Positions 14,113 through 47,204 of a DNA stretch of 55,083 nucleotides are shown here, one piece after another. The stretch comes from Nitrospiria bacterium. GTDB lineage: Bacteria; Nitrospirota; RBG-16-64-22. A program made the position numbers and the translations under genes. The notes beneath the pieces are model-generated. The model made no database searches and was not told the DNA's origin. It saw only the letters and a program-made list of their open reading frames with translations. The stretch spans positions 1 through 55,083 of the forward strand of contig CAKKSE010000076.1 of the NCBI GenBank assembly GCA_919903025.1, given 5' to 3'. How positions within the stretch are numbered: the stretch's first letter is position 1; every line of letters begins with the position of its first letter.

Positions 14113-14155
14113 CCGATTCACCCATTCACCGATTCACCGATTCATCCGCTCATCC
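14113..14155 (-). repeat. 8-nt tandem repeat (GGTGAATC on the sense/minus strand, about 5 units)
   Basis: The plus strand reads CCGATTCA CCCATTCA CCGATTCA CCGATTCA TCCGCTCA. The aldehyde dehydrogenase stop (14150..14152) lies in the last unit. Confidence 0.9.
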
Positions 14156-15643
14156 CCGGTCGATCTGGGCTTTCTGGAGCCGGCCGGAGAAGTCCCGGTA
14201 GATCACCTTCCACTTCGTGAAGAAGTCGAGGGCGCCGCCGCGCCCGCCGGCCTCGCGCGGGCCGCTTCCGCTCCCTTTCGTTCCGCCGAAGGGAAGCTGG
14301 ATCTCCGCGCCGATCGTGGAGGCGTTGACGTAAACAAGCCCCGTATCCATGTCGCGCTCGGCGATGGCCGACTTGTTCACGTCCCGGGTATAAATCGCCG
14401 ACGACAGGCCGTACTTCGTCCCGTTCACGATCTCGATGGCGTGCGCCAGGTCTCGCGCCCGGATGACGGCGACGACCGGGCCGAAGATTTCCTCCCGGGC
14501 GATCCGCATCTTCGGGTCCACGTCCGCGAAGACCGTGGGTTCGATGAACCACCCTTCGGCCAGACTGCCCGAGACCTTGCGCTTCCCGCCGCAGAGGAGC
14601 CTCGCCCCTTCCTTCCTGCCGATCTCGATGTAGTCCAGAACCTTGTTCATCTGCTCCTGGCTCACGACGGGTCCCACGTCCGTCGAAGGATCGAGACCGT
14701 CGCCCAGCCGAAGGGCTTTCGCCCGGCCGGCGAACTTCTCCAGAAAGGAGTCGCAGACCTTCTCATGGACGACGATTCGGGCGGCGGCGGTGCATCGCTG
14801 GCCGGACGTGCCGAACCCTCCCCAGATTGCGCCTTCCACGGCCAGGTCCAGGTCCGCGTCGTCCATCACGACGATCGCGTTCTTCCCGCCCATCTCCGTG
14901 GAGACGGACCGGTGAAGGGCGCCGCAGGCTTGCTCGATTCCCTCGCCCGTATCGCACGATCCGGTAAAAGACACGGCGTCGATCCCGGCGTGCGAGACCA
15001 GCGCCCCGCCCGCCTCGGAGCCCGTCCCATGGACGAGGTTGAGGACGCCGGGCGGGAGGCCGGCCTCGACGAGAATCTCCACGAGCCGCGTCGCGCAGAC
15101 GGGCGTGAGCGACGACGGCTTGAAGACGACCGTGTTGCCGCAGACGAGCGCGGGAAAGATCTTCCAGGCGGGGATGGCCACCGGGAAGTTCCAGGGTGTG
15201 ATGAGGGCGCAGACGCCGACGGGCACGCGGACGCTCTTCGCGTCCTTGTCGGGAAGCTCGGAGGGGACCGTCTCGCCGGAGAGCCGCCGGCCTTCACCCG
15301 CCATGTAGAAGGCCATGTCGATCGCTTCCTGGACGTCTCCCAGGCCTTCCTTCAGGACCTTTCCCATTTCCCGCGTGACGAGGCGGCCGAGATCCTCTTT
15401 TCTTCGCGCCAGAAGCTCACCCGCACGGATGAGGACCTCGCCCCGTCGCGGTGCGGGCGTGAGCCGCCAGGCGTCGAATGCCCGCCGGGCCGCGTCGACG
15501 GCGGCATCAACCTCGGCCTCCGAAGAGCGGGGAACGCGGGCCAGGACGTCCGACGCGCGGGCCGGATTGACGCTCTCGATCGTATTCGAAGGGGGCGGTT
15601 CGGTCCATCGGCCGCCGATCAGGTTCCGAAGCGTCTCGGGCAT
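14150..15643 (-). CDS. aldehyde dehydrogenase family (likely 1-pyrroline-5-carboxylate / glutamate-semialdehyde dehydrogenase)
   Basis: ORF trimmed to [13 protein letters not shown] at 15643, with GGAGG 8 nt upstream. ALDH motifs FTGS, MGGKNA and GQRCTAA. Lies in the same cluster as proline dehydrogenase. Confidence 0.8.
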
Positions 15644-15714
15644 GGCTTGGCCTCCGGTGTCGGCGAGAAACGTACCATAATAGCCATAGGTCATTCAACG
15701 CTGGGGGGGGCTGA

Positions 15715-15770
15715 GGAATTGGAAATTGAAAATTGAAAATTGTAAATTGGAAATTGGAAGTTGGAAAAGT
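15715..15770 (+). repeat. 7-nt tandem repeat (GAAATTG/AAAATTG, about 8 units)
   Basis: GGAATTG GAAATTG AAAATTG AAAATTG TAAATTG GAAATTG GAAGTTG GAAAAGT, followed by TCGATGGTTGGGGGTCTCCCATCAACCGATCGACCCATCAACC (to 15812). Confidence 0.9.
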
Positions 15771-15820
15771 CGATGGTTGGGGGTCTCCCATCAACCGATC
15801 GACCCATCAACCTAACCGCG

Positions 15821-15875: not shown

Positions 15876-17381
15876 ATGGCCGGGTTGGAAGAGATCAAGG
15901 CCGAAGAACGAAGACGCCTGGAGCGCGAACAGCTCTTTGTCCGCCTCATCGTCATCACCCTCGTCGTGGTCTATTCCTACGCCAATCTGGGGCTCCCGGG
16001 ACCGAGGTCCACGGCCTTCTTCGCAACCCTCATCTTTGCGGTCTACTACGCGGGCCTCCTCTTCTACTACCTCGCGCTCCGGCGGGACTGGATCGCGGGC
16101 GCCCGGATCTACGTCGGTCTCACGCTCGACAACATCATCATCACGACCGGCGTCTTCATCTCCGGCCAGACCCAGAGCGCCTTCTACGTCTTCTACTACC
16201 TGGTCGGGTTCGGAACCGGGTTTCGATACGGCCAGACGCCGATGCTCGTCTCCCTGGCGCAGGCCACGGTCGGATACTCGGGCATCATCCTCTACGACTA
16301 CGTTACGCCGCCCCACGAGCCCCAGATCTCGATGGAGGTCATCAAGATCCTGGCCATGTGGGGCCTCACGTACTACGTGACGGTCCTGATCCAGAAGCTC
16401 CGAAAGAAGGAGAAGAACGTCCTGGAGCTGGCGCGGCGGGTCCAGAAGCTCGAGGACCCTGGGGTGGACCCGCAGTCGGTCTACTTCTCGACGGGGGACG
16501 AGATCGAGGTATTGGCGGGAACGTTCAACGCGCTGACAGACTCGCTCAAGCGCCGCGAGGAGGCGCTCACGCGGCAGAACGAGGAGCTTCGCCGGATGGC
16601 CGACGAGCTTAGGAAGTCGCTCGCCCTCAAGGAGGAGAACGTCGAGCTTCGCTTGCTCACGGAGGAGCTCAACCGGCAGAAGGATCTGGCCGTCCACGCC
16701 ACGCAGGCGAAAACAAAGTTCCTCGCCACGATGTCGCACGAGCTCCGGACGCCGCTCACCTCGATCCGGTGGTCGGCCGAGAACATCCTGGCCGGCGTCG
16801 GCGGGCCGATCAGCCCGAAACAGCAGGACTACCTGAAGGCCCAGATCAGGACGACCGATCACCTGATCCGGCTGGTGAACGAATTGCTCGATCTCTCGCG
16901 GATCGAGGAGGGGCGGATCGTCCTGAACCGGACCCGCCAGACCGTGTGGGAGATCGTCCGCGACGCGATGGCGGACGTCCAGGGGATCGCGGAACAGCGC
17001 GGCGTCCAAGTCGTCGTCGGCTCTTCCGACGGGAGCGAGCGGATGGAGGTGTCGGTCGACAGGGACCGCATTCTCCAGGTCCTCGTGAACCTCCTTCATA
17101 ACGCGATCAAGCACGCTCCCGCGGGAAGCCGCGTGACGATCGACGCCGGCGCCCGTTCGTCGGAGTTCCGGATCGACGTGGCGGACGAGGGGGGAGGAAT
17201 CTCCGCCGAGTTCCTGCCGCACATTTTCGACCCGTTCACCCAGGCGGAGACGGTGAAGGAGGGCGCCGGCCTGGGGCTCGCCATCGCCAAGAACCTGGTG
17301 GAGCTGCACGGGGGGAGGCTGACGGTCGAAAGCGCCGTCGGCGTGGGAAGCCGGTTCTCCGTCTATCTGCCGATGGGGTGA
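15876..17381 (+). CDS. membrane sensor histidine kinase
   Basis: Multiple N-terminal TM helices, coiled-coil linker, H-box ATMSHELRTPLTSI, and an HATPase region with NLLHNAIKH, DEGGGI and GAGLGLAI. Confidence 0.85.
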   Translation: MAGLEEIKAEERRRLEREQLFVRLIVITLVVVYSYANLGLPGPRSTAFFATLIFAVYYAGLLFYYLALRRDWIAGARIYVGLTLDNIIITTGVFISGQTQSAFYVFYYLVGFGTGFRYGQTPMLVSLAQATVGYSGIILYDYVTPPHEPQISMEVIKILAMWGLTYYVTVLIQKLRKKEKNVLELARRVQKLEDPGVDPQSVYFSTGDEIEVLAGTFNALTDSLKRREEALTRQNEELRRMADELRKSLALKEENVELRLLTEELNRQKDLAVHATQAKTKFLATMSHELRTPLTSIRWSAENILAGVGGPISPKQQDYLKAQIRTTDHLIRLVNELLDLSRIEEGRIVLNRTRQTVWEIVRDAMADVQGIAEQRGVQVVVGSSDGSERMEVSVDRDRILQVLVNLLHNAIKHAPAGSRVTIDAGARSSEFRIDVADEGGGISAEFLPHIFDPFTQAETVKEGAGLGLAIAKNLVELHGGRLTVESAVGVGSRFSVYLPMG

Positions 17382-17388
17382 TGGGCAC

Positions 17389-17423
17389 AGAGTTCGGAGT
17401 TCAGAGTTCAGAGTTCGGAGTCT
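17389..17423 (+). repeat. 7-nt tandem repeat (AGAGTTC/GGAGTTC, 5 units) between the kinase and regulator genes
   Basis: AGAGTTC GGAGTTC AGAGTTC AGAGTTC GGAGTCT. Confidence 0.9.
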
Positions 17424-19641: not shown

Positions 19642-19686
19642 GGAATTGGAAATTGGAAATTGGAAATTGCAAGAATTGCAAGAATC
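19642..19686 (+). repeat. 7-nt tandem repeat (GAAATTG x4) followed by ATTGCAAGA x2
   Basis: GGAATTG GAAATTG GAAATTG GAAATTG CAAGAATTG CAAGAA, followed by TCGATGGTTGAGGTCGCCCATCGATCCATCAAC (to about 19717). Confidence 0.9.
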
Positions 19687-19722
19687 GATGGTTGAGGTCG
19701 CCCATCGATCCATCAACTCATC

Positions 19723-22729: not shown

Positions 22730-23046
22730 CGCTTCACGTTGCCTTCGCTCGGCGCTAGTTCCTCGAATCTCGGTTCTTTCCGGCGAAGTGGAGGATAGCC
22801 TTTGGCACAGGCCGGAATGCTCATCGGCAAAGGCCCCAGAGGCTGGCTCCAGGGCCATCGACACCAGATCCCGCTCCCAAGAAGCTTGATTCTTCTCTCC
22901 GAGGGACTCTCTCCGTTAAAAGGACTCGTCCCGGTTGATACTTGTCCAAATCCTTGACGAGTCCGGATGATTCCTCCGCGATTGAAATGGGAAATCTGCC
23001 GGGCGTCAATCCGCGCATCGCGGCGACGTTCGGGAGAGAAATGAGC

Positions 23047-23078
23047 TTGCAAAATAGAAATCGATTTCTGTTTTGCAA
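23047..23078. promoter_or_regulatory. AT-rich 32-bp palindrome TTGCAAAATAGAAATC|GATTTCTGTTTTGCAA
   Basis: 15 of 16 positions are self-complementary. Lies in a 560-nt intergenic region just upstream of the candidate 6S RNA. Candidate operator or promoter element. Confidence 0.35.
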
Positions 23079-23094
23079 GATTGGTTTCGCGCAT

Positions 23095-23285
23095 GGCTCT
23101 CACCGTTGGGTCGGGAGAGAGGGTCTCTACGAACCTTCGGGGCCTGATGGAGCTTCTGGGCAGAGCGTGAGGGGCCGGCTGTTTGGCCTGATTCGTCGGC
23201 TTGGCCATCGTCCCTCTTGCCCTCTCCGCTTGCTCTCTCCGTTGACACGACTTCACCCAGGTGATACCTTCCCAGCCTTCGAGCG
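23095..23285 (+). ncRNA. ssrS: candidate 6S RNA (ssrS-like); boundaries approximate
   Basis: Non-coding stretch immediately upstream of, and co-oriented with, the 5-formyl-THF cyclo-ligase gene, which is the E. coli ssrS-ygfA arrangement. The 5' arm TCACC..TGGGT..GTCG..GGAGAGAG can pair with the 3' arm CTCTCTCC..CGAC..ACCCA..GGTGA to give a long rod. Not verified by folding or a covariance model. Confidence 0.35.
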
Positions 23286-23292
23286 AGGCTGA

Positions 23293-23889
23293 ATGAATCC
23301 TCCGCGGTCGAAAGAAGAGATCCGCCGGACGATGATCGCGGCGCGCGAGGCGCTCGATCCCTCCGAGCGCCGGATCATGAGCGAAGCGATCGCCGCCCGG
23401 CTCGGCTCGATGCCGTTCTTCGAGGGAGCGCGGGCGGTCGGGCTCTATAGGGGCGTGCGCGGGGAAGTCGAGACGGATCTCCTCGTTGAGCGGTGCTTCC
23501 GCGAAGGCCGGAAGGTAGCCGTTCCCGTCGTCCGGCGGGAGGAGCGGCGACTTCTCTTTTCCTGGACCTCCCACGAGACGCGCTGGGCGGCCGGTCCGTT
23601 CGGCATTCCCGAGCCGGCGCCGGAGGACGTGGAGCCGGCGGACGTCGCGTCCCTCGATCTCCTCGTGATGCCGGGGGTCGCGTTTGCGGAGGATGGTTCT
23701 CGCTTGGGCTACGGCGGGGGATACTACGACCGGCTTCTTCGGGAGGCCGCCCGGCGGCCGGTGACCGTCCTCCTCGCGTTCGAGATGCAGGGCGTGCCGG
23801 AGCTTCCGCGGGGCGATCACGACGTCCGTGTGGACTGGATTGTGACGGAAGGAAGGACGATCAACGCGGGTGAATCGGTGAGTCGGTGA
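23293..23889 (+). CDS. 5-formyltetrahydrofolate cyclo-ligase
   Basis: 198 aa with KEEIRR...R..L and the C-terminal [11 protein letters not shown] motif. The stop codon lies inside the GGTGAATC repeat. Confidence 0.85.
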
Positions 23890-23908
23890 ATCGGTGAATC
23901 GGAGAAAT
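23869..23908 (+). repeat. 8-nt tandem repeat (GGTGAATC, about 5 units)
   Basis: GGTGAATC GGTGAGTC GGTGAATC GGTGAATC GGAGAAAT. Contains the upstream stop (23887..23889) and ends 10 nt before the folD ATG. Confidence 0.9.
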
Positions 23909-23917
23909 AGGGATCAG

Positions 23918-24763
23918 ATGGCGAAGATAATCGACGGCAAGGCGATCGGTCAGACGGTGCGAGACGAGGTCGCGCGCGACGTGGGACGGCTGAGGGAAGT
24001 CGGCGTCGTTCCGGGTCTTGCCGTCGTGCGCGTGGGGGACAACCCGGCGTCGGCCATCTACGTCCGAAACAAGCGGAAGGCGTGCGAGGCGGCCGGGATC
24101 CACTCCGAGGAGCACGATCTTCCCGGGACGACGGACATGGCGGCCCTCCTTGGCCTGGTCGAGCGGCTGAACCGCGATCCGCGGATCCACGGAATCCTCG
24201 TCCAGCTTCCCCTGCCGAAGGGGCTGGATGAGAGGGCCGTCCTTCGCGCCGTCGATCCGGCGAAGGACGTCGACGGGTTCCATCCGTTCAACGCGGGGCG
24301 GCTCTTGTCGGGAGACCCGTCGCTGGTTCCCTGCACGCCCCTGGGGGTCCTCCGGATGCTCAAGGAGGCGGGCGTCCCGCTCGCGGGGCAGGAAGCCGTC
24401 GTCGTCGGCCGGAGCAACATCGTGGGGAAGCCGATGGCTCTCCTCCTCCTCGGCGAGAACTGCACGGTTACGATCTGCCACTCCCGGACGAGGGACTTGC
24501 CCGCCGTGTGCCGGCGCGCGGACATCCTGGTCGCAGCCGTCGGCAAGGCCGAGATGGTCCGCGGGGACTGGGTGAAGGATGGAGCCGCCGTAATCGACGT
24601 CGGGATCAACCGCCTTCCCGACGGGAAGCTCGTCGGCGACGTGGCGTTCGAAGAGGCCCGCGCGAGGGCGGGATGGATCACGCCCGTTCCCGGCGGCGTG
24701 GGGCCGATGACGATCGCCATGCTTCTTTCGAACACGATCCTGGCGGCGCGGAGCGCACTCTAA
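23918..24763 (+). CDS. folD: bifunctional methylenetetrahydrofolate dehydrogenase/cyclohydrolase
   Basis: [10 protein letters not shown]...ILVQLPLP...[11 protein letters not shown]...[10 protein letters not shown]. Confidence 0.9.
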
Positions 24764-25566
24764 TGGCGACCGAAAGAACCACGATCCACACGCTCATCCA
24801 AAAGAAGAAGGACGGCGAGAAAATCGCCGCCGTGACGGCCTACGACTATCCGTTCGCCGAGATCGCCGACGAGGCGGGGATGGACATCGTCCTCGTCGGG
24901 GATTCGCTCGGGATCGTCGTCCAAGGAGAGGAGACGACGCTCCCCGTCACGATGGATCAGATGGTCTACCACACGCGCCTTGTCTCCCGAGCGGTCAAGA
25001 AGGCCCTCGTGGTCGGCGACATGCCGTTTCTCTCCTATCAGGCCGGCATCGAGGACGCCGTCAGGAACGCCGGGCGGTTTGTCCAGGAAGGGTTCGCTCA
25101 GGCCGTGAAGCTGGAGGGAGGGGCGGGCGTTCTCGATCAGGTGAGCGCGATCTCGAGGGCCGGGATTCCCGTGATGGGCCACCTGGGGCTCACGCCCCAG
25201 TCAGTCCACCAGATGGGCGGGTACAAGGTCCAGGCTCGCTCGCCGGCGGAGGGGGACAAACTCCTCGCCGACGCGCGGGCGCTCGAGGAAGCCGGCGTTT
25301 TCGCCATCATCCTCGAGGGAATCCCGGCCCGTCTCGCGAAGCGGGCGACTCAGTCCGTCTCCGTCCCGACGATCGGAATCGGCGCGGGGCCGCACTGCGA
25401 CGGACAAGTCCTTGTCTTGCACGATCTGCTCGGTCTCTTCGTGAAGTTCTCTCCCAAGTTCGTCAAGCGCTACGCGAACCTCCGTGAGGAGTCGCTCAAG
25501 GCCCTGCGGCACTACCGAAGCGAAGTCCTGTCAGGCGAGTTCCCCACCGACCAGCATTCGTTCTGA
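24763..25566 (+). CDS. panB: 3-methyl-2-oxobutanoate hydroxymethyltransferase
   Basis: TAATG overlap with the folD stop. [11 protein letters not shown]...VLVGDSLG...VKLEGG...GHLGLTPQS. Confidence 0.9.
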
Positions 25567-25581
25567 GATTCGTCTTGGAAT

Positions 25582-25610
25582 CCGCAGATTGCGCAGATTT
25601 GCGCAGATAA
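25582..25610 (+). repeat. short tandem repeat (GCGCAGAT-like, 3 units of 9-10 nt)
   Basis: CCGCAGATT GCGCAGATTT GCGCAGATAA, just after the panB stop. Confidence 0.8.
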
Positions 25611-25680
25611 GGCACGGCGGCAGAGGCGGGTTCGGTGACCTGCCCTACGAAAGCCCCCCGTAGGGCAGCACACCGTGCCT
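25610..25680. terminator. long nested hairpin between convergent panB and glgB (terminator-like, no U-tract)
   Basis: Outer stem AGGCACGG / CCGTGCCT and inner stem CTGCCCTAC / GTAGGGCAG with an 11-nt loop. Confidence 0.35.
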
Positions 25681-25715
25681 GCCCCCTGCACCCGCAAATC
25701 TCTGTGCCTCCGGGG

Positions 25716-27935
25716 CTAGTCACTTTTTTTCAGCCAGATCGCCGCCAAGGGCGGAAGGGTGAGGGAGAGCGAGCACGGACGGCCCTGCCAGGGGGTTGGC
25801 TCGGCCATGACGCCGCCGCCGTTGCCCATGTTGCTTCCTCCGTAGTGCTCCGAATCGCTGTTCAGGATCTCCCGGTAGAAGCCCGGCTCCGGGACGCCGA
25901 TCCGGTATCCGCGCTGAGGGACTGGCGTGAAGTTGCAGACCGCAACGAGGAAGTCGCGCGGGTTCCTCGCCCGCCGCAGGAACACGATCACGTTGTGGTC
26001 GGCGTCGTGGAAGTCGATCCACTCGAACCCCTCCCAGTGGAAATCTACTTCCCACAAGGCCGGCTGGGATCGGTACAGCACGTTGAGATCCCGGACGTAC
26101 TTCCTGAGTTTCTCGTGCGGGTCGAATTCCAGGAGGTGCCACTGGAGAGACGAGCCTTCGTCCCATTCCCACCACTGGCCCAACTCCCCGCCCATGAATA
26201 GGAGTTTCTTCCCCGGGTAGGCGTGCATGAAGCCGTAGAAGAGCCGGAGATTGGCGAATCTCTGCCAGAAGTCGCCCGGCATCCTGTCCAGGAGGGAGCG
26301 TTTTCCGTGAACGACCTCGTCGTGGGAGAGAGGCAGGATGAAGTTCTCCGTGAACGCGTACAGGAGGCCGAACGTGATCTGGCCGTGGTGGTACTTCCGG
26401 TGGACCGGGTTCTTCGACACGAAGTCGAGCATGTCGTGCATCCATCCCATGTTCCACTTGAGGGAAAAGCCCAGCCCTCCCAGATAGGTGGGGCGGGAGA
26501 CGGCCGGCCAGGCGGTCGATTCCTCGGCGACCGTGGCCGCGCCGGGGAATTCGCGGTGGACGGCCTCGTTCAGCTCCCGGATGAAGGCGATCGCCTCCAG
26601 GTTCTCGTTTCCCCCGTAGACGTTCGGGACCCACTCGCCCGGCCGGCGGGAATAGTCGAGATAGATGACGGAGGCCACGGCGTCCACCCGCAGGCCGTCT
26701 GCGTGGAACCGGTCGAGCCAGAAGAGGGCGTTCGAGATGAGGAAGTTCTTCACCTCGTTCCGCCCGTAATTGAAGATGAGCGTTCCCCAGTCCTGGTGGA
26801 ATCCCTTTCGCGGGTCTTCGTGCTCGTAGAGGCAGGTCCCATCGAACTGCCTGAGGGCGTGATCGTCGGCCGGGAAGTGGGCCGGGACCCAGTCGAGGAT
26901 GACGCCGATCCCGTTCTGATGGCACTGGTCGATGAGAAACATGAGATCCTCGGGCGGACCGAAGCGGCTTGTCGCCGCGAAGTAGCCGGTCACCTGGTAA
27001 CCCCATGAGGCGTCCAGGGGATGCTCCATCACCGGAAGGAGCTCGACGTGCGTGTATCCCAGATCCTTTACGTAGAGGACCAGGTCGCGGGCCAGCTCGC
27101 GGTACGTGAGGGAGCGGTTCCCCTCATCGGGGACCCGCCGCCACGATCCCAGGTGGACCTCGTAGATCGACATCGGGCGGTCGAGGGGATTTGCCCTGGT
27201 CCTCGCTTCCATCCAGGCTTGGTCGTTCCACCGGTATTTCGAGATGTCGTGGACGACGGAGGCGGTCTTCGGGCGAAGCTCCGTCAGGAAGGCGTACGGA
27301 TCGGCCTTGACGCGGGCCGGCCCGCCGGCGTTCGGCCGGATCTCGAACTTGTAGAGAGAGCCCTCGGGCAGGCCGGGGATGAATATCTCCCAGATCCCGG
27401 ACGTGCCGCGGAGACGCATCGGATGGATTCGGCCGTCCCAGTGGTTGAAGTCGCCGATCACGCTTACGCGTCTGGCGTTCGGCGCCCAGACGGCGAATTG
27501 GACGCCCGGCGCGCCGTTCACGACGCGGAGGTGGGCGCCCAGCTTTTCGTAGGTCCGGTAGTGCTTTCCCTCGCCGATCAGGTGGAGATCGAAATCGGTG
27601 AGGACCGGCGGGAAGGCGTACGGATCCTGGATGTCGGATTCCCGGTTCCGCCAGTCGACGAGGCGAAGACGGTACGGACGCCCCCCCTCGTCCCGGGGGA
27701 GGACAGCCTCGAAGAAGCCGTCCGGGTGCTGTTTCTCCATCGGGACGGGCGAGCCGGGGTCGGAGTCGGTGATGACGAAGGCTTCCCGCGCGTCGGGCCG
27801 GAAGACCCGGACGCAAACGGCAGGCGCTCCGCCGCGAATCGAGGGATGCGGGCCGAGGACCTGGAAAGGGTTCCAGTGCTCGGCTCGGACGATCCGGAGG
27901 ATCTCATCGTGCAAACTGTTTTCATAAACATCCAT
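25716..27935 (-). CDS. glgB: 1,4-alpha-glucan branching enzyme
   Basis: ORF trimmed to MDVYENSL, with AGGGGG upstream. GH13 motifs [24 protein letters not shown] and [12 protein letters not shown]. Confidence 0.9.
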
Positions 27936-28083
27936 CTGGGACGAACCCCCTTTCCCGCTTTGCACCATCATCCTATCACCGGACGGTCGAAACCGGGAAC
28001 AACGAAGCGCATCCCGTCGCAGGCGGGACCGCAATCCCCGCATTGTCGGAGCCGGCCAGCGCACTTTTCCCGCGCCTTTTTTC

Positions 28084-28112
28084 TTGACACTCTCTGCCTC
28101 GTCCGATAGGAT
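28084..28112 (+). promoter_or_regulatory. sigma-70-type promoter TTGACA-N17-TAGGAT with an upstream T-tract, for the nuo operon
   Basis: Hexamers read directly, about 150 nt upstream of the nuoA ATG. Confidence 0.5.
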
Positions 28113-28264
28113 GCGAACGCCTTTTGATCGTTTCGCCGAATCTCTTTAGTTTCAACGCGTTAGGGCTATTCCGCGGGTCGACTGTATACACTTTCGGCGG
28201 CTTGGAAGGCGGACTCGCCTTCCGGCGGCGCTTTCGCCGTGCAGGGAGCCGTGCAGGGAGATTG

Positions 28265-28636: not shown

Positions 28637-28656
28637 GGATTAGGGATTAGGGGGTA
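28629..28656 (+). repeat. 7-nt tandem repeat (GGGATTA x3 plus GGGGGTA); canonical G-quadruplex motif
   Basis: GGGattaGGGattaGGGattaGGGGG. The nuoA TAG stop (28634..28636) lies inside unit 1. Confidence 0.9.
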
Positions 28657-32536: not shown

Positions 32537-34485
32537 CGCGGTCGGTCGTTTTGTTCAGGGATCTGCTGATCCCGATCCTGCCGCTCGCGGCGTTCCTGGT
32601 GAACGGCCTCTTCGGCCGGTGGACGCGCGAGAAGGCCCACTGGGTCTCCGTCCCGGCCGTCGTCCTCTCGTTCCTCCTGTCGCTGTTCGTCCTCAAGGAC
32701 GTTCTCTCCGGCGTCAATACGTACGCCTCTCTTTACCGCTGGATTACGGTCGGCGCGTTCGACGTCTCCGTCGGCGTCATGATCGACCCGCTCACGGCCG
32801 TCATGCTGATCGTCGTGACGTCGGTCTCGTCCCTGGTTCACATCTATTCCATCGGATACATGCACGGCGACAAGGGGTACGCCCGGTTCTTCGCGTACCT
32901 CTCGCTCTTCACGTTCTCCATGCTGATGCTGGTTCTCTCCAACAACCTTCTCGAGCTCTTTGTCTTCTGGGAGGCCGTGGGGCTTTGTTCCTACCTCCTG
33001 ATCGGCCACTGGTACGACCGGCGCTCCGCCGCCGACGCGGCGACCAAGGCGTTCGTCGTGAACAGGGTCGGCGACTTCGGTTTCGGCCTGGGGCTCCTTC
33101 TCATCTTCGTCACGCTCGGGACTCTCGACTATCAGGCTGTCTTCCTCGGCGCGAAAGCCGCGACGAACCAGACGGTCGACCTCCTCGCCCCGTTCGGCGG
33201 CAAGCTCGACGTCGGGCTCGTGACCTTGATCGCCCTCCTCCTCTTCGCCGGCGCGATGGGGAAGAGCGCCCAGCTTCCCCTCCACGTCTGGCTCCCGGAC
33301 GCGATGGAGGGCCCGACGCCGGTCTCGGCTCTCATCCACGCGGCGACGATGGTGACGGCGGGCGTCTACATGGTGGCCCGGATGCACCCGGTCTTCGAGC
33401 TTTCTCCTTCGGCGATGGCGACCGTGGCCGTCGTGGGGGGCGGGACGGCCATCTTCGCGGCGACGATCGGCCTCGTCCAGAACGACATCAAGCGGGTTGT
33501 GGCGTACTCCACGGTGAGCCAGCTCGGGTACATGTTCCTGGCCTGCGGGATCGGCGCGTACGGCATCGCAATCTTCCACCTGATGACGCACGCGTTCTTC
33601 AAGGGGCTCCTCTTCCTCGGCGCCGGGAGCGTGATCCATGCGCTTTCGGGCGAGCAGGACATTCGGAAGATGGGGGGTCTCCGGAACAAGATCCCGGCGA
33701 CCTACCTCACGTTCCTGATCGGGTCGCTCTCGCTGGCGGGTGTCCCGCTCTTCGCCGGCTTCTTCAGCAAGGACGAGATCCTGACGCGGGCCTTCTTCGC
33801 CGGAGACCTGGGGCGCGTTCTCTGGGGCGTGGCGCTCCTTGGGGCCTTGCTGACGGCCTTCTACGCTTTCCGGCTCGTCTATCTCGTCTTCCACGGCGAG
33901 ACCCGTCTGCTTCCCGACGCGGCGCATCACGTCCACGAGTCGCCCCCGGTCATGACGGTCCCTTTGTGGATCCTGGCCGTTCTGGCCGTCTTCTCCGGGT
34001 GGGTGGGAATCCCGCTGATCGCCGGCGGCGACAAGATCGGCCACTTCCTGGAGCCGGTCTTCAAGGGCGTAGCGCACGTTGCGCATGCGGACATTCGCCT
34101 GGAGTTTTGGCTGATCGCGGTTTCCGTCATCGTGGCGCTCCTGGGGATCGCCGTGGCGGACATGTTCTACAGGACCCGGCCGGCCATGCCGGACAAAGTC
34201 GCGTCGGCTTGGCCCCGCTTCTACTCTCTTTTGCTCAACAAGTGGTGGTTCGACGAGATTTTCGACTGGGCGATCGTCCGGCCGACCCGGAGGATTTCAG
34301 AAGCGTTCCTCTGGAAGGTTGCCGACGTCCGGATCATCGACGCCTTCGTGAACGGCGTCGGGAGCGTGACGCAACAGGCCGCGGCCTCCTGGCGGCGAAT
34401 CCAAACCGGACTCACGCAGGATTACGCGATGACGGTCGTCCTGGGGCTCCTCGCGATCGTCGCCGTCTGGCTTGCGGCATGGTGA
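32533..34485 (+). CDS. nuoL: NADH-quinone oxidoreductase subunit L
   Basis: ATGA overlap with the nuoK stop. 650 aa antiporter-like subunit with WEAVGLCSYLLIGHW, GKSAQLPLHVWLPDAMEGPTPVSALIHAATMV and a C-terminal extension. Confidence 0.9.
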   Translation: MTRSVVLFRDLLIPILPLAAFLVNGLFGRWTREKAHWVSVPAVVLSFLLSLFVLKDVLSGVNTYASLYRWITVGAFDVSVGVMIDPLTAVMLIVVTSVSSLVHIYSIGYMHGDKGYARFFAYLSLFTFSMLMLVLSNNLLELFVFWEAVGLCSYLLIGHWYDRRSAADAATKAFVVNRVGDFGFGLGLLLIFVTLGTLDYQAVFLGAKAATNQTVDLLAPFGGKLDVGLVTLIALLLFAGAMGKSAQLPLHVWLPDAMEGPTPVSALIHAATMVTAGVYMVARMHPVFELSPSAMATVAVVGGGTAIFAATIGLVQNDIKRVVAYSTVSQLGYMFLACGIGAYGIAIFHLMTHAFFKGLLFLGAGSVIHALSGEQDIRKMGGLRNKIPATYLTFLIGSLSLAGVPLFAGFFSKDEILTRAFFAGDLGRVLWGVALLGALLTAFYAFRLVYLVFHGETRLLPDAAHHVHESPPVMTVPLWILAVLAVFSGWVGIPLIAGGDKIGHFLEPVFKGVAHVAHADIRLEFWLIAVSVIVALLGIAVADMFYRTRPAMPDKVASAWPRFYSLLLNKWWFDEIFDWAIVRPTRRISEAFLWKVADVRIIDAFVNGVGSVTQQAAASWRRIQTGLTQDYAMTVVLGLLAIVAVWLAAW

Positions 34486-34492
34486 GACAAAG

Positions 34493-35998
34493 ATGAAGTT
34501 TCCGATCCTGTCGCTCACGACGTACATCCCCCTGATCGGCGCCCTGTACCTCCTCTTCATGAAGGAGCACGAAGGGATGGTCCGGCGGCTCTCGCTCGCC
34601 GTCTCGCTAGCCGCTCTTGCCCTCTCGGTCCTCATGCTCGGCCACTTCGATCCGAAGAGCGCGGGGTTCCAGTTCGTGGAGAACCTCGAGTGGGCGCCTT
34701 CCCTCGGCATCTCCTACAAGATGGGCGTGGACGGCATCAGCGTTCTCTTCATCGTCCTGACGACGGTCCTCACCGTCCTGTGCGTTCTCGTCTCCTGGAC
34801 TCAGGTGAAGAAGTACGTGCGGGAGTTCCACGTGGCCCTTCTCGTCATCGAGTCGGCGATGCTCGGCGTTTTCTCGGCGCTCGACCTCGTCCTCTTCTAT
34901 GTCTTCTGGGAAGTGATGCTCATCCCCATGTTCCTCATGATCGGGATCTGGGGAGGGCCGAACCGCGTTTATGCCGCCGTGAAGTTCTTCCTCTACACGC
35001 TGGCCGGGTCGGTCCTCATGCTGATCGGCATCATCGTCCTCTACGTCCACGGCGGAAAGACGTTCGACGTCGCGGCCCTGCTTCAGGTCAAGTTCGCGGC
35101 GCCCGTCCAGTTTTGGGTCTTCCTGGCCTTCTTCGTCGCGTTCGCCGTGAAGGTTCCGATGTGGCCGGTCCACACGTGGCTTCCGGACGCCCATACCGAG
35201 GCGCCCACGGCGGGTTCCGTGATCCTGGCCGGGATTCTCATCAAGATGGGGGCGTACGGCTTCCTCAGGTTCTCGCTCCCGATGTTTCCCGACGCGACCG
35301 TCACCTTCGCTCCGTACATCCTCGCCCTTTCGCTTGTGGCGATCATCTACGGGGCGCTCGTGACGCTCGTCCAGACCGACCTCAAGAAGCTCATCGCCTA
35401 CTCGTCGGTCTCGCACATGGGGTTCGTGACGCTCGGGATCTTCGCCCTGAACCGCCAGGGAATCGAGGGCGGGATCATGCAGATGGTCAACCACGGGATC
35501 ATCACGGGGGCGTTGTTCCTTCTCATCGGGATCATCTACGAGCGGACGCACAGCCGGGAGATCTCGGCCTACGGGGGGATCGCCCGGAGCGTCCCGCGGT
35601 ACGCTTCGTTCTTCGTCCTCTTCGTCCTCGCGTCGCTCGGCCTGCCGGGTCTGAACGGGTTCGTGGGGGAGTTCCTGGTCCTCCTGGGGGCATTTCAGCG
35701 CGACCGGATCGTCGGGGTCCTGGCGATGACGGGGATCATCCTGGCTGCCGTCTACCTTCTCTGGATGACCCAGCGTGTCCTCTTCCAGGAGATGACGCAT
35801 CCCGAGAACGAGAAGCTGGCCGATATCGACACGCGGGAATTCATCACGCTTCTCCCGCTGGCCGTTTTGGTCGTTTTCCTGGGCGTCTATCCCAATCCCG
35901 CCCTTTCGGTGATGCACGCCTCGGTGGACCAGATGATGGCGAAGATGGAAGCGCACAAGGCGGCGGCCATCACCTGGGCGCAGGCATGGCCGTTCTGA
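34493..35998 (+). CDS. nuoM: NADH-quinone oxidoreductase subunit M
   Basis: ORF trimmed to MKFPILSL, 7 nt after the nuoL stop. FWEVMLIPMFLMIGIWGG and KVPMWPVHTWLPDAHTEAPTAGSVILAG. Confidence 0.9.
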   Translation: MKFPILSLTTYIPLIGALYLLFMKEHEGMVRRLSLAVSLAALALSVLMLGHFDPKSAGFQFVENLEWAPSLGISYKMGVDGISVLFIVLTTVLTVLCVLVSWTQVKKYVREFHVALLVIESAMLGVFSALDLVLFYVFWEVMLIPMFLMIGIWGGPNRVYAAVKFFLYTLAGSVLMLIGIIVLYVHGGKTFDVAALLQVKFAAPVQFWVFLAFFVAFAVKVPMWPVHTWLPDAHTEAPTAGSVILAGILIKMGAYGFLRFSLPMFPDATVTFAPYILALSLVAIIYGALVTLVQTDLKKLIAYSSVSHMGFVTLGIFALNRQGIEGGIMQMVNHGIITGALFLLIGIIYERTHSREISAYGGIARSVPRYASFFVLFVLASLGLPGLNGFVGEFLVLLGAFQRDRIVGVLAMTGIILAAVYLLWMTQRVLFQEMTHPENEKLADIDTREFITLLPLAVLVVFLGVYPNPALSVMHASVDQMMAKMEAHKAAAITWAQAWPF

Positions 35999-36009
35999 GG
36001 GCATGAAAC

Positions 36010-36041
36010 GGGGAAGCGGAGAAACGGTGAATCGGAGACAA
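36010..36041 (+). repeat. degenerate 8-nt tandem repeat (GGGGAAGC GGAGAAAC GGTGAATC GGAGACAA)
   Basis: Between nuoM and nuoN. The last unit supplies a GGAG 9 nt before the nuoN GTG. Confidence 0.7.
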
Positions 36042-36043
36042 CA

Positions 36044-37492
36044 GTGATTCAGTTCAATGCGGCTGATCTGGTCTGGCTTCTTCCGGAGATCATCCTCTTC
36101 GTCACGGCTTCGGCCGTCGTCCTCCTGAGCGTGATCGTCCGGCCAGAGGCGCGCTCGGGGCTCGCGGCGCTCGCCGTGATCGGGGCGCTGGCCGCGGGGT
36201 GGGCCGCGTACGGCCTCAGCGACGGAAACGTGGAACTGTTTTCCCGGATGGTCATCGTCGACCCGTTCGCCACGTACTTCCGCTACCTGTTCGTCCTCGC
36301 CGTCCTCGGGGGTGTTCTCCTTTCCGTCCGGACGCTCCAGACGGAGGGAGGGAACCGGTCCGAATACTACGGGCTCATGCTCTTCGCCGCGATCGGGATG
36401 ATGGTCATGGCCGAGGCGGGCGACCTCCTCATGGTCTACATCGGCCTGGAGCTCATGTCCCTGTCGCTGTACATCCTCGCCGGCTTCTACCGCCGCGAGA
36501 CGCGGTCGAACGAAGCCGCGATCAAGTACTTCATCCTGGGGACGCTCGCCTCGGGAATCTTCGTTTACGGCTTGTCGCTTCTCTACGGCCTCACGGGGAC
36601 GACGTCGATCCGCGCGATCGGCGAGATCGTGTCGGCGGGGGGTCTTTCCCGCCCGGCTCTCGTCCTGGCCCTGGCGATGGTCGGAACGGCCTTCGCGTTC
36701 AAGGTGGCGGCCGTTCCTTTCCACATGTGGACGCCGGACGTCTACGAGGGGGCTCCCACGCCGGTTACGGCCTTCATGTCAGTCGGGCCGAAGGCGGCCG
36801 GATTCGCCGTTTTCCTGCGCGTTTTCCTCGAAGCTTTCCCGGCCGCCCAGCCGGACTGGAACAACCTCGTCATCGTCCTTTCCATCCTCACGATGGCCGT
36901 GGGGAACATCATCGCCATCGCCCAGACGTCGGTCAAGCGGATGCTGGCTTACTCGTCCATTGGCCACGCGGGGTACATCCTGATCGGCCTCGTCGGCGGG
37001 ACGGCTGTGGGGGCGGGGGCCGTCCTCTTCTACCTCCTCATGTACACGATCACGAACCTGGGCGCGTTCGGCATCCTGGTCGTCCTGCAGAGGGAGAAGG
37101 GGCGGGTGGAGACGCTGGACGATTTCGCCGGTCTCGGGAAGACGCATCCGGCCGCGGCCCTGGGGATGCTCATCTTCCTCTTCTCGCTCACCGGCATTCC
37201 GCCGATGGCCGGGTTCTTCGGGAAGTTCTACCTCTTCACGGCCGCCGTCAAGGCGGGGTACGTCTGGCTCGCCGTCCTCGGCGTTCTCATGAGCGCCGTG
37301 TCGGCCTTCTACTATCTCCGCGTCGTCCTCGCCATGTACATGCAGGAGCCCGCCGCGGCGGGGGCCGGGGAGCCGATGTCCCAGCCCAGCGCCGTCCTGG
37401 CCGTCACGATCGCCGCCTTCCTCACCGTCGGGATCGGCATCCTGCTCAATCCTCTTCTCTCTCTCGCGGCGGCGTCCCTGCCCAAGATGTGA
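36044..37492 (+). CDS. nuoN: NADH-quinone oxidoreductase subunit N
   Basis: GTG start. 482 aa antiporter-like subunit with FKVAAVPFHMWTPDVYEGAPTPVTAFM. Confidence 0.85.
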   Translation: MIQFNAADLVWLLPEIILFVTASAVVLLSVIVRPEARSGLAALAVIGALAAGWAAYGLSDGNVELFSRMVIVDPFATYFRYLFVLAVLGGVLLSVRTLQTEGGNRSEYYGLMLFAAIGMMVMAEAGDLLMVYIGLELMSLSLYILAGFYRRETRSNEAAIKYFILGTLASGIFVYGLSLLYGLTGTTSIRAIGEIVSAGGLSRPALVLALAMVGTAFAFKVAAVPFHMWTPDVYEGAPTPVTAFMSVGPKAAGFAVFLRVFLEAFPAAQPDWNNLVIVLSILTMAVGNIIAIAQTSVKRMLAYSSIGHAGYILIGLVGGTAVGAGAVLFYLLMYTITNLGAFGILVVLQREKGRVETLDDFAGLGKTHPAAALGMLIFLFSLTGIPPMAGFFGKFYLFTAAVKAGYVWLAVLGVLMSAVSAFYYLRVVLAMYMQEPAAAGAGEPMSQPSAVLAVTIAAFLTVGIGILLNPLLSLAAASLPKM

Positions 37493-37575: not shown

Positions 37576-37613
37576 CCCCCCCCACCTATGTCCTCCCCCG
37601 CAAGGGGGGAGGA
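37576..37613 (-). repeat. REP-like GC-rich hairpin, inverted relative to 37517..37556
   Basis: C-tract tail CCCCCCCCACCTATG, then TCCTCCCCC-GCAA-GGGGGAGGA. Forms an inverted pair with the preceding copy. Confidence 0.85.
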
Positions 37614-37634
37614 GAGAGGAATGGAAGGGGAAAC

Positions 37635-44913: not shown

Positions 44914-46400
44914 TGGGCCGGATCATCCGCCTGGCCGTCGTGGTTGTCTGGGTTTCCCTCCTTGTCGTCCTTGGGACCCGGGTGTACGCACCGGGGGGCG
45001 CGACGGTCCTTGTCCCGGAGAAGATCGACGCGGTCTCCCCGGTCCGGGAAGAGTGGCTCGGCGCCTACTTCAAGGGGAACAAGATCGGCTATATCACGAC
45101 CCGCACCGAACGGATCGGGGAGATCATCCACATCAAGCAGACGGGAGAGCTCAGGCTCTCGCTCCTCGGGCAGGCCCGGCGCGTCGAGTACGAGCTCTCC
45201 GCCTACAATGGCGCCGACTACCGCCTGCGCTCGTTCTCCTTCCGGCTCAAGTCGGAGTTCTCCGACATCGAGGCCTCGGGAGAGGTGCGCGGCCGCCGGA
45301 TGCTGCTCTCGCTCGTCTCGGGCGGAGAGACGCGGAAGCACGTCGTCGAGATGGCCGATGTTCCCTATATCGCGGCCGGCCTGAAACCGGTCCTCGCCAA
45401 CCAGCCCCTCGCGCCGGGGAAGAAGTTCCGGTTCCACGTCTTCGAGCCGCCTCCCACGTTCCAGACCGTCCCGATGGAGATCGAGGTCGAAGGGATGGAC
45501 GGCGTCAAGATCGGCGGCACGGTGACGACGGCCTACCGCCTGAAGACGACCTACCACGGGCTCATCCTGCGGGCGTGGATCGACGAGAACGGAAATACGC
45601 TCAAGGAGGAGTCGCCCTCCGGATATACCCTGATCCGCGAATCCAGGCAGGCGGCCATGACGTTTCCTGAAGGAGCGCCGGTCTTCGATCTCCTGGCCCT
45701 GTCCAGCGTGCCGGTCGCGGGCTTGATTCCGGACAAGGGCGTGGTCGACTCGCTCACCCTCCGCGTATCGGGGATCGATCCCTCCATCTATCCGGATATG
45801 AACGGCGGGCGTCAGGCGGTCGAGGGGAACGACGTCGTCATTCGGCGGGAGGACCCGCGGGCCATCCCCTCCTATCCCCTTCCCTACAGGGGGCGGGAGT
45901 GGGCGGACGATCTCAAGCCCGATCCCTTTGTCCAGGCGGACCATCCGAAGATACGGGCGCAGGCGGAGAAGATCATGGCCGGGGAGACGGACGCGCTCAA
46001 GGCCGCCGAGAGGATCGCGTCGTGGGTCCACCTGAACGTCCGGAAGGAGCCCGTGGTCTCGATTCCTTCGGCTATCGAGGTCCTCGAAAACCGCGTGGGG
46101 GACTGCAACGAGCATACGATCCTGTACGCGGCCCTCGCCCGCTCTGCGGGGATTCCCACGAGGATTTCGGCGGGTGTCGTGCGCGTTCTCACACGTTTCT
46201 ACTACCACGCCTGGCCGGAAGTCTACGTGGGCAGTTGGATGGCGGTCGACCCCACGCTGGGGCAGTTCCCGGCCGACGCGACGCATCTCCGGCTCATCCA
46301 GGGCGGCCTCGACAAGCAGGCGCCGATCATCGCCGCGATCGGCTCCCTCCGCCTGGAGGTCAAGGGAGTGCGGATGTCCGGCCTGGAGGCGGCCCGGTGA
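44913..46400 (+). CDS. membrane-anchored transglutaminase-like (Cys-His-Asp) protein
   Basis: ORF trimmed to MGRIIRLAVVVVWVSLLVVL (TM anchor). Transglutaminase core GDCNEHTILYAALARSAGIP...YHAWPEVYVG...VDPT. Confidence 0.75.
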   Translation: MGRIIRLAVVVVWVSLLVVLGTRVYAPGGATVLVPEKIDAVSPVREEWLGAYFKGNKIGYITTRTERIGEIIHIKQTGELRLSLLGQARRVEYELSAYNGADYRLRSFSFRLKSEFSDIEASGEVRGRRMLLSLVSGGETRKHVVEMADVPYIAAGLKPVLANQPLAPGKKFRFHVFEPPPTFQTVPMEIEVEGMDGVKIGGTVTTAYRLKTTYHGLILRAWIDENGNTLKEESPSGYTLIRESRQAAMTFPEGAPVFDLLALSSVPVAGLIPDKGVVDSLTLRVSGIDPSIYPDMNGGRQAVEGNDVVIRREDPRAIPSYPLPYRGREWADDLKPDPFVQADHPKIRAQAEKIMAGETDALKAAERIASWVHLNVRKEPVVSIPSAIEVLENRVGDCNEHTILYAALARSAGIPTRISAGVVRVLTRFYYHAWPEVYVGSWMAVDPTLGQFPADATHLRLIQGGLDKQAPIIAAIGSLRLEVKGVRMSGLEAAR

Positions 46401-47140
46401 TCAAGCTCGATCATCTGACGAAACACTTCGGGCGCATCGCCGCCGTCGACGACCTTTCGCTCGAGGTTCGGGGCGGGGAGATCATGGCGTTCCTGGGGCC
46501 GAACGGGGCGGGGAAGACCACGACTCTCAGGATGATCGGCGGCCTGCTCGAGCCCACCGGCGGGCGGATCGAGGTGAAGGGACACGATCTGGCAAGGTCG
46601 CCGATCGAGGTGAAGCGGATCATGGGATTCATCCCCGATCGGCCGTATCTCTACGAAAAACTGACCGCCCGCGAGTTCCTAGTCTTTTCCGGCGGGCTCT
46701 ACGGTGTTCCGCCGGACCGGGCGTCATCGCGCGGGAAGGAGCTTCTCCATCTCTTCGGTCTCACGGATTGGTCGGATGAGCTGATCGAGTCGTTCTCCCA
46801 CGGGATGAAACAGCGCCTCGTCATGGCTTCCGCCCTGCTCCACGAGCCGGAGGTCCTTGTCATCGACGAGCCTATGGTCGGCCTCGACCCGCGCGGCACG
46901 AGGATGCTCAAAAACCTTTTCCGCGGGCTGAGGGACCGGGGGGTCACGATCCTCCTTTCGACGCACACACTCTCCGTCGCGGAGGAGATCTGCGACCGGG
47001 TGGCCATCATCCACAAGGGACGCTTGGTCTCCGTGGGGACGGTAGAGGATCTTCGCGTTCTCTCTCACAAGCACGAGGCGGGGTTCGAGGAAGTCTTCCT
47101 TGCGCTGACGAGCGAAGGGGAGGAAGGAACTGCAGATTGA
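46397..47140 (+). CDS. ABC transporter ATP-binding protein
   Basis: GTGA overlap with the upstream stop. Walker A GPNGAGKTT, signature SHGMKQR, Walker B VLVIDEP. Confidence 0.85.
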   Translation: MIKLDHLTKHFGRIAAVDDLSLEVRGGEIMAFLGPNGAGKTTTLRMIGGLLEPTGGRIEVKGHDLARSPIEVKRIMGFIPDRPYLYEKLTAREFLVFSGGLYGVPPDRASSRGKELLHLFGLTDWSDELIESFSHGMKQRLVMASALLHEPEVLVIDEPMVGLDPRGTRMLKNLFRGLRDRGVTILLSTHTLSVAEEICDRVAIIHKGRLVSVGTVEDLRVLSHKHEAGFEEVFLALTSEGEEGTAD

Positions 47141-47204
47141 AAATTGAAAATTGAAAATTTGAAATTGGAAATTGGAAATTGGAAAACGAAAGCCAAGAGC
47201 CAAG
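47133..47204 (+). repeat. 7-nt tandem repeat (AAAATTG/GAAATTG, about 8 units) followed by AGCCAAG x2
   Basis: Contains the ABC ATPase TGA (47138..47140) and ends at the ATG of the permease gene. Confidence 0.9.

Follow-up and report, generated by a model that had tools for sequence, protein, structure and literature searches.

Tandem heptamer and octamer arrays anchored at upstream stop codons in a groundwater Nitrospirota lineage

The short tandemly repeated (STRR) heptamers of heterocystous cyanobacteria were reportedly described by Mazel and colleagues in 1990, as several intergenic families of unknown function, and small dispersed palindromic repeats are said to nest in STRR-type arrays (a report attributed to Elhai and colleagues, in 2008). 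The function and origin of hepta- and octanucleotide repeats have been open since the STRRs were described. Another group of simple-sequence repeats (SSRs) makes up the contingency loci of host-adapted pathogens, for example the tetra- and heptanucleotide tracts of Haemophilus, where slippage alters the copy number. Here we analyse short tandem arrays, with units of 7 or 8 nucleotides, at the gene junctions of a 55,083-nt contig from a Nitrospiria bacterium (CAKKSE010000076.1, GenBank assembly GCA_919903025.1; the whole contig is referred to as the window). The 5' end of such an array is anchored at the stop codon of the upstream gene. We consider it likely, with a probability of about 0.6, that the arrays are simple-sequence repeats generated by slippage and filtered by selection, and that their effects on expression are by-products of the sites where they survive.

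Long simple-sequence repeats (LSSRs; Mrazek, Guo and Shah 2007) have units of 5-11 nt with an excess of heptamers according to the summary in PMC4679880, in which polymerase slippage is the proposed mechanism. The GGGNATC heptamers of Xanthomonas and Nostoc are transcribed and are unlinked to phase-variation genes (Rehm et al. 2015, PMC4692102). The TAACTGA repeats of marine Beggiatoaceae, Cyanobacteria and Bacteroidetes place stops in all frames in the forward orientation, and a translational role has been proposed for them (MacGregor 2015, PMC4679880). For other units, arrays overlapping stop codons on the coding strand are already on record (PMC4692102, PMC4679880). The arrays of the window share all the features of LSSR membership: their units fall within 5-11 nt, they are in excess over composition, there are many per genome, and they are non-coding.

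Tandem Repeats Finder (TRF) and direct reading recover all the arrays listed in the initial annotation of this DNA, with their units, exactly or displaced by a few bases at most. At least three copies are present in nine arrays of period 7 or 8, whereas 100 dinucleotide-preserving shuffles averaged 0.39 such arrays and never exceeded 2; three weaker arrays accompany the nine. The TRF arrays have periods of 7 and 8 and hold 2.1-7.3 copies. Their GC content is 42%, against 63.5% for the window, in keeping with the AT-richness noted earlier. The non-coding share of the window is roughly 12%, and every array lies there or overlaps only the terminal codons of a gene, which agrees with the first description of a dispersed family confined to gene junctions. 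Because the unit size is not a multiple of 3, all the arrays avoid coding DNA except for these terminal codons. The neighboring genes encode, by Pfam, aldehyde dehydrogenase, a histidine kinase and an NtrC-type regulator, 5-formyl-tetrahydrofolate (5-formyl-THF) cyclo-ligase, FolD, PanB, the products of nuoA/E/F/H/M/N and two ABC components.

Stops are found in all three sense frames in six arrays (14109, 23869, 28629, 29144, 29177 and 47136), the number counted in the initial annotation, and on the antisense strand only in the 28629 array. As a property of the arrays in general this does not hold, however, as about half of them carry no stop codon or Shine-Dalgarno (SD)-like motif at all. The arrays are not assembly artefacts, since four independent assemblies from other samples (L125, L127, L128 and L132) carry them unchanged and Logan contigs from further runs cross them with 0 differences (for example X1, over 22900-25684 and 26427-29171). 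An Rfam scan of the whole window gave no family at its gathering score, and a tRNA/tmRNA search of the window found none.

The anchoring at the upstream stop was measured on arrays with the degenerate octamer GGTGARTS between co-directional genes, taken from public genomes and metagenomes of many phyla. Open reading frames (ORFs) at these loci were called with our own GC-frame program (GC1 above GC2 and GC3, starts trimmed), which reproduced the gene table of L001, a relative of the window, and misses folD in the window. The upstream stop is separated from the 29 sense arrays by a median of 5 nt; 21 of them are within 20 nt of the stop, and 10 overlap it. In comparison, the median for the 35 antisense arrays is 78 nt, and only 1 is within 20 nt (Mann-Whitney p = 3e-8, Fisher p = 2e-9). 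The distance to the downstream start is loose, with medians of 128 nt for sense and 159 nt for antisense arrays, and 4 of the 29 sense arrays are within 20 nt of it. Among the antisense arrays, 8 of 35 are within 20 nt upstream of the called start of the next gene, possibly an artefact of start over-extension by the ORF caller. By the same caller, about 20% of the arrays in other phyla are inside ORFs, nearly all of them antisense. The window follows the same rule. Arrays with a co-oriented upstream gene have their 5' end between -21 and +7 nt of its stop, except for those at 29177 (27 nt past the nuoE stop) and 25583 (16 nt past the panB stop), while the next start is 0-108 nt away. This gives a quantitative rule that applies to many phyla: the upstream stop is where stop-bearing sense arrays begin, but not where antisense arrays do, and functional models must explain it.

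The first array of the window, on the minus strand, consists of 4.5 copies of GGTGAATC and ends in GGAGAA (14109-14144). The aldehyde dehydrogenase stop (14150-14152) precedes it by a few nucleotides, and the aminotransferase ATG (14045) follows it after 63 nt. The arrays that follow are all on the plus strand. The divergent spacer between the aldehyde dehydrogenase and histidine kinase genes contains 7.3 copies of AATTGRA (15717-15767), at 22 nt from the start of the former gene and 108 nt from that of the latter. A hairpin module (TCGATGGTTGGGGGTCTCCCATCAACCGATCGAC..., 15768-15815) comes directly after this array, with a fold of -22.4 kcal/mol (z -2.3). Between the kinase (stop at 17379-17381) and the NtrC-type response regulator are 4.9 copies of (C/G)AGAGTT (CAGAGTT, 17388-17421), and the SD of the regulator (GGAGGG) is outside the array. 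A convergent spacer holds 3.7 copies of AATTGGA (19644-19669) continued by 2.3 copies of AATTGCAAG (to 19685). This array starts 7 nt past the stop of a 139-residue ORF and is followed by a second copy of the hairpin module (CGATGGTTGAGGTCGCCCATCGATCCATCAAC, 19686-19722, z -2.25).

At the junction of the cyclo-ligase and folD genes, the 4.8 copies of GGTGAATC at 23869-23906, again ending in GGAGAA, supply the codons for the C-terminal 6 residues of 5-formyl-THF cyclo-ligase together with its stop (23887-23889), and the folD ATG is at 23918. An RNA contig (X15, 23747-23987) spans this array with 0 differences, so that a weakly structured array linker within an operon mRNA is seen for this one array, with DNA carry-over possible. 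Further upstream, between an IclR-type regulator gene and the cyclo-ligase gene, a 42-nt direct repeat is found at 22907-22948 and 23233-23274 (74% identical, 326 nt apart), which may be an operator or promoter duplication.

The complex I cluster (28319-37492) has the order nuoA-E-F-H-J-K-L-M-N; nuoB, C, D, G and I are absent between nuoA and nuoH and may be located elsewhere in the genome or in the remainder of the window, which was not annotated gene by gene. Three of its junctions carry arrays. The 3.4 copies of GGGATTA at 28629-28652 contain the nuoA TAG stop (28634-28636), and the same unit is also found on the stop of another gene in L070. The nuoE TGA (29147-29149) is inside the 4.2 copies of GGTGAATC at 29144-29176. 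This array is abutted by 5.4 copies of GACCAAT (29177-29221), which extend into the nuoF ATG (29217). The nuoM stop (35996-35998) is followed after 6 nt by four degenerate GAAnCGGn units related to GGTGAATC (36005-36038). Outside the cluster, 7.1 copies of ATTGRAA (AATTGRA) at 47136-47185 contain the TGA stop of an ABC ATPase (47138-47140), and 2.1 copies of AGCCAAG (47191-47205) overlap the ATG of the ABC_tran_2 gene (47204). The upstream stops of the cyclo-ligase, nuoA, nuoE and ABC ATPase genes are thus borne by arrays, as had been claimed, but that of aldehyde dehydrogenase, named together with them, is 5 nt before the TRF boundary.

The four G3 tracts of the nuoA array raise the possibility of structural DNA or RNA elements such as G-quadruplexes. 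The 3.4 copies of GGGATTA give exactly the four tracts of the GGGNATC repeats (PMC4692102), but G3 tracts occur in this array only and the L001 ortholog has 1.5 units, which makes it extremely unlikely that such structures account for the arrays.

The repeats are not a peculiarity of the window. The closest match to its FolD, at 94% identity, is from groundwater metagenome-assembled genomes (MAGs), and the remaining matches are at most 69% identical. An exact look-up of the histidine kinase sequence of the window returned no contig, and a member of its cluster was used as the query instead; the members of the cluster come from the Hainich and other groundwater samples. Among 119 genome loci, the closest tetranucleotide usage (r = 0.98) is that of 'Nitrospirae bacterium RBG_16_64_22' and of an 'NC_groundwater' Nitrospirae MAG. 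Five non-orthologous contigs of one JGI sample (Ga0154722), with r of at least 0.98, add 57 kb of the same lineage. Seven same-lineage loci have 0.9-3.4 arrays of period 7 or 8 per 10 kb, compared to 0-1.1 at two distant loci found through FolD; the distant folD relatives L171 and L173 (67% identity) are not syntenic with the window.

In the source metagenomes the contig depth jumps on every array, about 5-fold for GAGTTCG, 25- to 30-fold for GGTGAATC and 50- to 165-fold for AATTGRA. It reaches 633 at the 14109 array (about 22 around it), 1014 at 15717 (about 20), 536 at 29144 (20) and, at 95% likeness or better, 3317 at 47136 (20). These jumps are produced by dozens of contigs with unrelated flanks, as seen in particular for the 29144 array, and many of the contigs are at the depth of this genome in two samples, so the arrays form a genome-wide repeat population. 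RNA contigs carry AATTGRA arrays from other loci as well, with the same possibility of DNA carry-over. This is a new lineage in which such arrays occupy a large share of the operon junctions.

What is general among the arrays is the 7-8 nt register and not the GGTGAATC unit. In 858 kb of array-bearing loci there are 193 arrays of period 7 and 207 of period 8 with at least three copies, and 8, 46, 34 and 9 of periods 5, 6, 9 and 10, respectively; most units of these matched loci are lineage-specific. The GGTGARTS pattern, for which no mention was found in the literature searched, is present in at least 119 genome stretches of many phyla. A special cross-phylum family of this unit is nonetheless unsupported. 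In viral contigs, four permuted control units match 9, 26, 12 and 12 loci and GGTGARTS itself matches 14, and the matches thus reflect the general abundance of octamer arrays. In Acidobacteriota MAG loci (L035, L084, L100 and L121) and many other loci, GGTGAATC arrays abut arrays of further units, among them GGGAGAC, CAGATGT, CGATTGAC and GCTGATT. Behind many arrays of other phyla comes their inverse complement, and the two together make a long hairpin with tandem-repeat arms.

The diversity of units bears on a model in which the arrays are binding sites for a sequence-specific RNA- or DNA-binding protein (CsrA-, S1- or Csp-like) and define a post-transcriptional regulon, an idea already put forward for TAACTGA. 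Many loci of one genome share a unit, GGA motifs are present in the AATTGGA, GAGTTCGGAG and GGGATTA units, and the arrays are transcribed. However, at least 7 unrelated units co-exist and interchange at one junction, the GACCAAT and CGCAGATT units have no GGA, and the flanking genes are functionally unrelated (folate metabolism, complex I, ABC transporter, two-component system, aldehyde dehydrogenase). No candidate protein was identified, and we regard this model as very unlikely.

Strain variation was followed on assembled contigs (Logan contigs in the case of sequencing runs), in which rare copy-number variants are invisible. In L125, L127, L128 and L132, with flanks that are 97-100% identical, the copy number is the same at 6 junctions, and only two point substitutions are observed. 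The arrays are therefore not hypervariable, and the earlier idea of slippage-prone spacers that tune coupling is not supported by these data. The copy-number polymorphism looked for among strains is absent from these four, but two junctions do differ among close strains: the array between the aldehyde dehydrogenase and kinase genes (15717) is 41 nt longer in L131, with diverged units, and the population of run X5 has canonical GGTGAATC units between nuoM and nuoN, where the version in the window has decayed. These two differences are what would be expected of phase-variable contingency loci, whose copy number switches the expression of a neighbor at high frequency. The constant copy number in the four assemblies speaks against this, within the limit that contigs set on rare variants, and so does the location of the arrays, which are at the 3' ends of housekeeping genes rather than in the promoter or 5' coding region of a surface gene. 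Phase variation is a highly improbable explanation here.

Larger changes are seen in L001, which is about 92% identical overall and has orthologous genes with 86-93% nucleotide identity (77-86% at third positions). Four of six junctions have the same unit with a changed copy number; the other two have replacements, namely an element resembling a miniature inverted-repeat transposable element (MITE) at the position of the 19644 array, and a CACGGAGA array. Between nuoA and nuoE, L001 has five copies of AATTGGA in place of the 3.4 copies of GGGATTA, of which 1.5 units are present. Its array between nuoE and nuoF is split by two palindromes resembling repetitive extragenic palindromic (REP) elements, and the GACCAAT array is absent. 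The TGA of the L001 kinase gene is the first unit (TGAGTTC) of an array of the 17388 type, and the first units at nuoA and nuoE in the window are native 3' coding sequence that is also present in L001. In L170, the junction of the cyclo-ligase and folD genes has one GGTGAATC unit and a C6...G6 palindrome with no in-frame stop, and the gene call predicts a 485-residue fusion of cyclo-ligase and FolD (3001-4458).

A sequence of three steps is the simplest explanation of this pattern. The arrays would be created and resized by slipped-strand mispairing or unequal exchange, which would intrinsically favor a register of 7-8 nt. As a period of 7 or 8 nt destroys the reading frame, only arrays located outside genes survive. 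In addition, where the unit has TGA or TAG in the sense orientation, the array can occupy the end of a gene and supply its stop codon. All-frame termination, longer spacers and the occasional SD-like last unit would then be by-products and not designed regulation. Such a survival filter accounts together for stop anchoring, sense orientation, stop-richness and AT-richness, while the next start may be at any distance.

Several observations weigh against this account. Pure local slippage leaves unexplained the recurrence of units at many loci (in roughly 130 kb, GGTGAATC at no fewer than 12 and AATTGRA at no fewer than 6) and the modules shared by the AATTGRA arrays at 15717 and 19644, which by alignment have a common G-rich 5' flank and 3' hairpin module. 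It also leaves unexplained the sense bias of GGTGAATC, the purine-rich mRNA strand and the persistence of units at orthologous junctions. In the window and the non-orthologous loci of the lineage, the GGTGAATC family is in the sense orientation in 8 of 9 co-directional spacers. The mRNA strand is purine-rich in all 15 co-directional arrays of period 7 or 8 that were scored (in the window, L001 and the five loci of sample Ga0154722, with L049, L070 and L122 left out of the tally), and the arrays have stayed at the same junctions over about 15-18% third-position divergence. The orientation bias within the lineage could stem from selection at the RNA level. Finally, the stop distances depend on our ORF caller, checked only on the window and L001 and less reliable at low-GC loci.

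The sole antisense exception of the GGTGAATC family, at position 6706 of L070, is in a 540-nt spacer behind a terminator-like hairpin, and further GGTGAATC copies in L070 overlap the stops of minus-strand genes. One array of L049 is pyrimidine-rich (CAATTTT, 6754-6787); an AATTGAA array shares its co-directional spacer, and the two are inverted partners. The initial annotation held that GGTGAATC arrays always read in the sense of the flanking operon. This is largely true of the lineage, but across phyla there are 29 sense and 35 antisense arrays when metagenome loci are included (20 and 28 before they were added), and a universal orientation rule is rejected. The predicted RNA folding of the arrays is weak, 0 to -0.20 kcal/mol per nt compared to -0.25 in coding windows. 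Sense RNA folds slightly more than antisense RNA, and a lack of structure in the sense strand only is rejected as the cause of the bias. Rho acts on C-rich, G-poor unstructured tracts inside operons and causes polarity. Antisense arrays, which would place C-rich, G-poor tracts in operons, may possibly cause such polarity.

The orientation bias is also consistent with a translational model, in which the arrays are cis elements in polycistronic mRNA and act as all-frame insulators, as re-initiation pads through GGUGA or GGAG, or as standby sites. The conserved 16S 3' tail contains UCACC, to which GGUGA is complementary. The last unit of the 36005 array, GGAGA, is 5 nt before the nuoN GTG (36044). 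Besides the preference for sense within the lineage, the model would account for the all-frame stops of six arrays, nearly absent from the antisense strand, for the four genes that take their real stop from an array, for the predicted fusion in L170, where a single stop-less unit is left, and for the RNA contig across the junction of cyclo-ligase and folD. It parallels MacGregor's proposal for the TAACTGA repeats (PMC4679880). However, the geometry of the arrays follows the upstream stop, with the next start at a loose distance both across loci and in the window, and this goes against the suggested standby-site and re-initiation-pad roles. Arrays also occupy divergent (15717) and convergent (19644, 25583) spacers, so that a role specific to cistron junctions is not supported, and about half of them have neither a stop nor an SD-like motif. 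L001 has another unit between nuoA and nuoE and has lost two arrays outright, antisense arrays are as common as sense arrays across phyla, and sense RNA shows no lack of structure compared with antisense RNA. As a donor of SD sequences an array is plausible for nuoN only. For folD, the other gene for which this had been suggested, GGAG is 13 nt from the ATG and a better-placed AGGGA is outside the array, and the response regulator and nuoF genes likewise have better-placed purine motifs outside their arrays. Overall, the translational model is possible but doubtful. A wider model, in which the stop-anchored sense arrays form a genome-wide cis system for termination or insulation, ribosome hand-over, a dedicated binder or templated unit addition, is improbable. 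The all-frame-stop action is real, but it is probably a result of where the arrays survive and not their purpose, and no result here demonstrates control of expression by the arrays.

Small palindromic elements are nested in several arrays. The repeat given earlier as a GCGCAGAT-like array at 25582 is present as 2.7 copies of CGCAGATT(T)G (25583-25608), but it is not free-standing. A 141-nt hairpin element occupies 25575-25715, in the convergent spacer of panB and glgB, and the repeat forms its outer 5' arm; the minimum free energy of the element is -71.7 kcal/mol (z -5.1). The core of this hairpin (25624-25686) is multi-copy in groundwater metagenomes, with a depth of 255 compared to 19. A related hairpin element of about 115 nt, with octamer arms (CGCAGATT)x3 ... 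(AATCTGCG)x3 and a fold z of -3.8, is located inside GGTGAATC arrays at four non-orthologous sites (L001 9808-9925; L159 ~1025-1145 and ~11555-11670; L150 ~5795-5910), with 88-94% identity. Small palindromic elements of the REP/MITE type have therefore inserted into arrays. The palindromes that characterize REP elements, REPINs and MITEs are absent from the arrays themselves and present in the nested elements, such as those at 25575-25715 and L001 9808-9925.

These findings raise the possibility that the arrays have travelled within small composite mobile elements of the MITE/REPIN type or were generated around such elements, the units then being cargo or target sites of mobile DNA instead of products of slippage in place. 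The hairpin of about 115 nt within arrays at four sites, the common flank and hairpin module of the 15717 and 19644 arrays, the array between panB and glgB that is itself an element arm, and the REP-like palindromes that split the array between nuoE and nuoF in L001 and that between cyclo-ligase and folD in L170 are all consistent with this. On the other hand, most arrays (14109, 17388, 23869, 28629, 29144 and 47136) lack such a module. In the orthologous arrays of the window the nested elements are missing, which indicates that the elements arrived after the arrays, and the native coding sequence in the first nuoA and nuoE units favors an origin in situ. No transposase or RAYT-like gene was seen nearby, although none was searched for. 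A mobile origin is therefore an unlikely explanation.

Other palindromic and repeated elements are found in the same DNA. In L001, a MITE-like element of about 170 nt is present at 1486-1655 and, as the reverse complement, at 5490-5665 and 14110-14280, all intergenic. It is absent at the orthologous sites of the window, and one of its copies is the replacement of the 19644 array. At 12665-12763 of the window, just upstream of aminotransferase operon genes, are three tandem 36-nt units, each consisting of a REP-like palindrome (GCCCTCTCCCGCCAGGGGAGAGGG) and an A-rich spacer, and a related copy (37590-37625, 67% identical) is located 25 kb away. A toxin-antitoxin pair (PIN-domain and ribbon-helix-helix proteins) is found at ~8775-9440, according to the gene table of the near-identical L125. 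The GC content of 52001-54000 is 0.565, compared to about 0.64-0.69 in the adjoining sequence, and this segment may be foreign DNA or a non-coding stretch.

Whether or not they regulate anything, the arrays have practical consequences. True stop codons and protein C-termini are set by them, genes can be fused or kept apart by them (the case of cyclo-ligase and FolD is an example), short-read assemblies break at them, and small mobile palindromes are attracted to them. If the arrays were functional translation elements they would represent a new layer of operon organization, but the evidence favors tolerated repeat DNA.

Among the known systems, the STRRs provide one possible sequence match. 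The GACCAAT unit is a reverse-complement rotation of TTGGTCA, reportedly the unit of STRR2. The other units are unmatched, octamers are present in addition to heptamers, and the host is non-cyanobacterial, as shown by nuoE and nuoF, the GC content of 64% and the Nitrospirae-labelled relatives. The SSRs of contingency loci differ more strongly, since the arrays here have a stable copy number, are located at the 3' ends of housekeeping genes and have no apparent on/off logic.

The TAACTGA repeats resemble the present arrays in that one heptamer is found at many intergenic sites and all-frame stops limit overlap with gene ends. However, TAACTGA is mostly a few nucleotides upstream of starts (PMC4679880), whereas the arrays here are anchored at the upstream stop and belong to several unit families, and no TAACTGA tandems were found here. 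The GGGNATC repeats (PMC4692102) are similar in being dispersed, in excess in non-coding DNA, preferentially between aligned ORFs, transcribed and free of phase-variation genes. The 8 of 35 antisense arrays close to the next called start would match the repeats that Rehm and colleagues place on the non-coding strand shortly before an ORF, though they may be an artefact of the caller. The units are different, with no GGGNATC tandems in the window or the same-lineage loci, and there is no preference for four units. The fourfold G3N4 pattern is seen only in the 3.4 copies of GGGATTA at 28629, the only array that could form a G-quadruplex, as predicted from its sequence.

The closest correspondence is with the LSSRs, as direct tandems of 7-8 nt above chance, with prominent heptamers, sporadic in free-living bacteria and avoided in coding DNA. 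The differences are the uncultured groundwater host lineage, octamers that are as prominent as heptamers, and the quantification of stop anchoring. The arrays belong to the known class of bacterial simple-sequence repeats (LSSR/STRR-like); the lineage, the units and the quantified anchoring are new.

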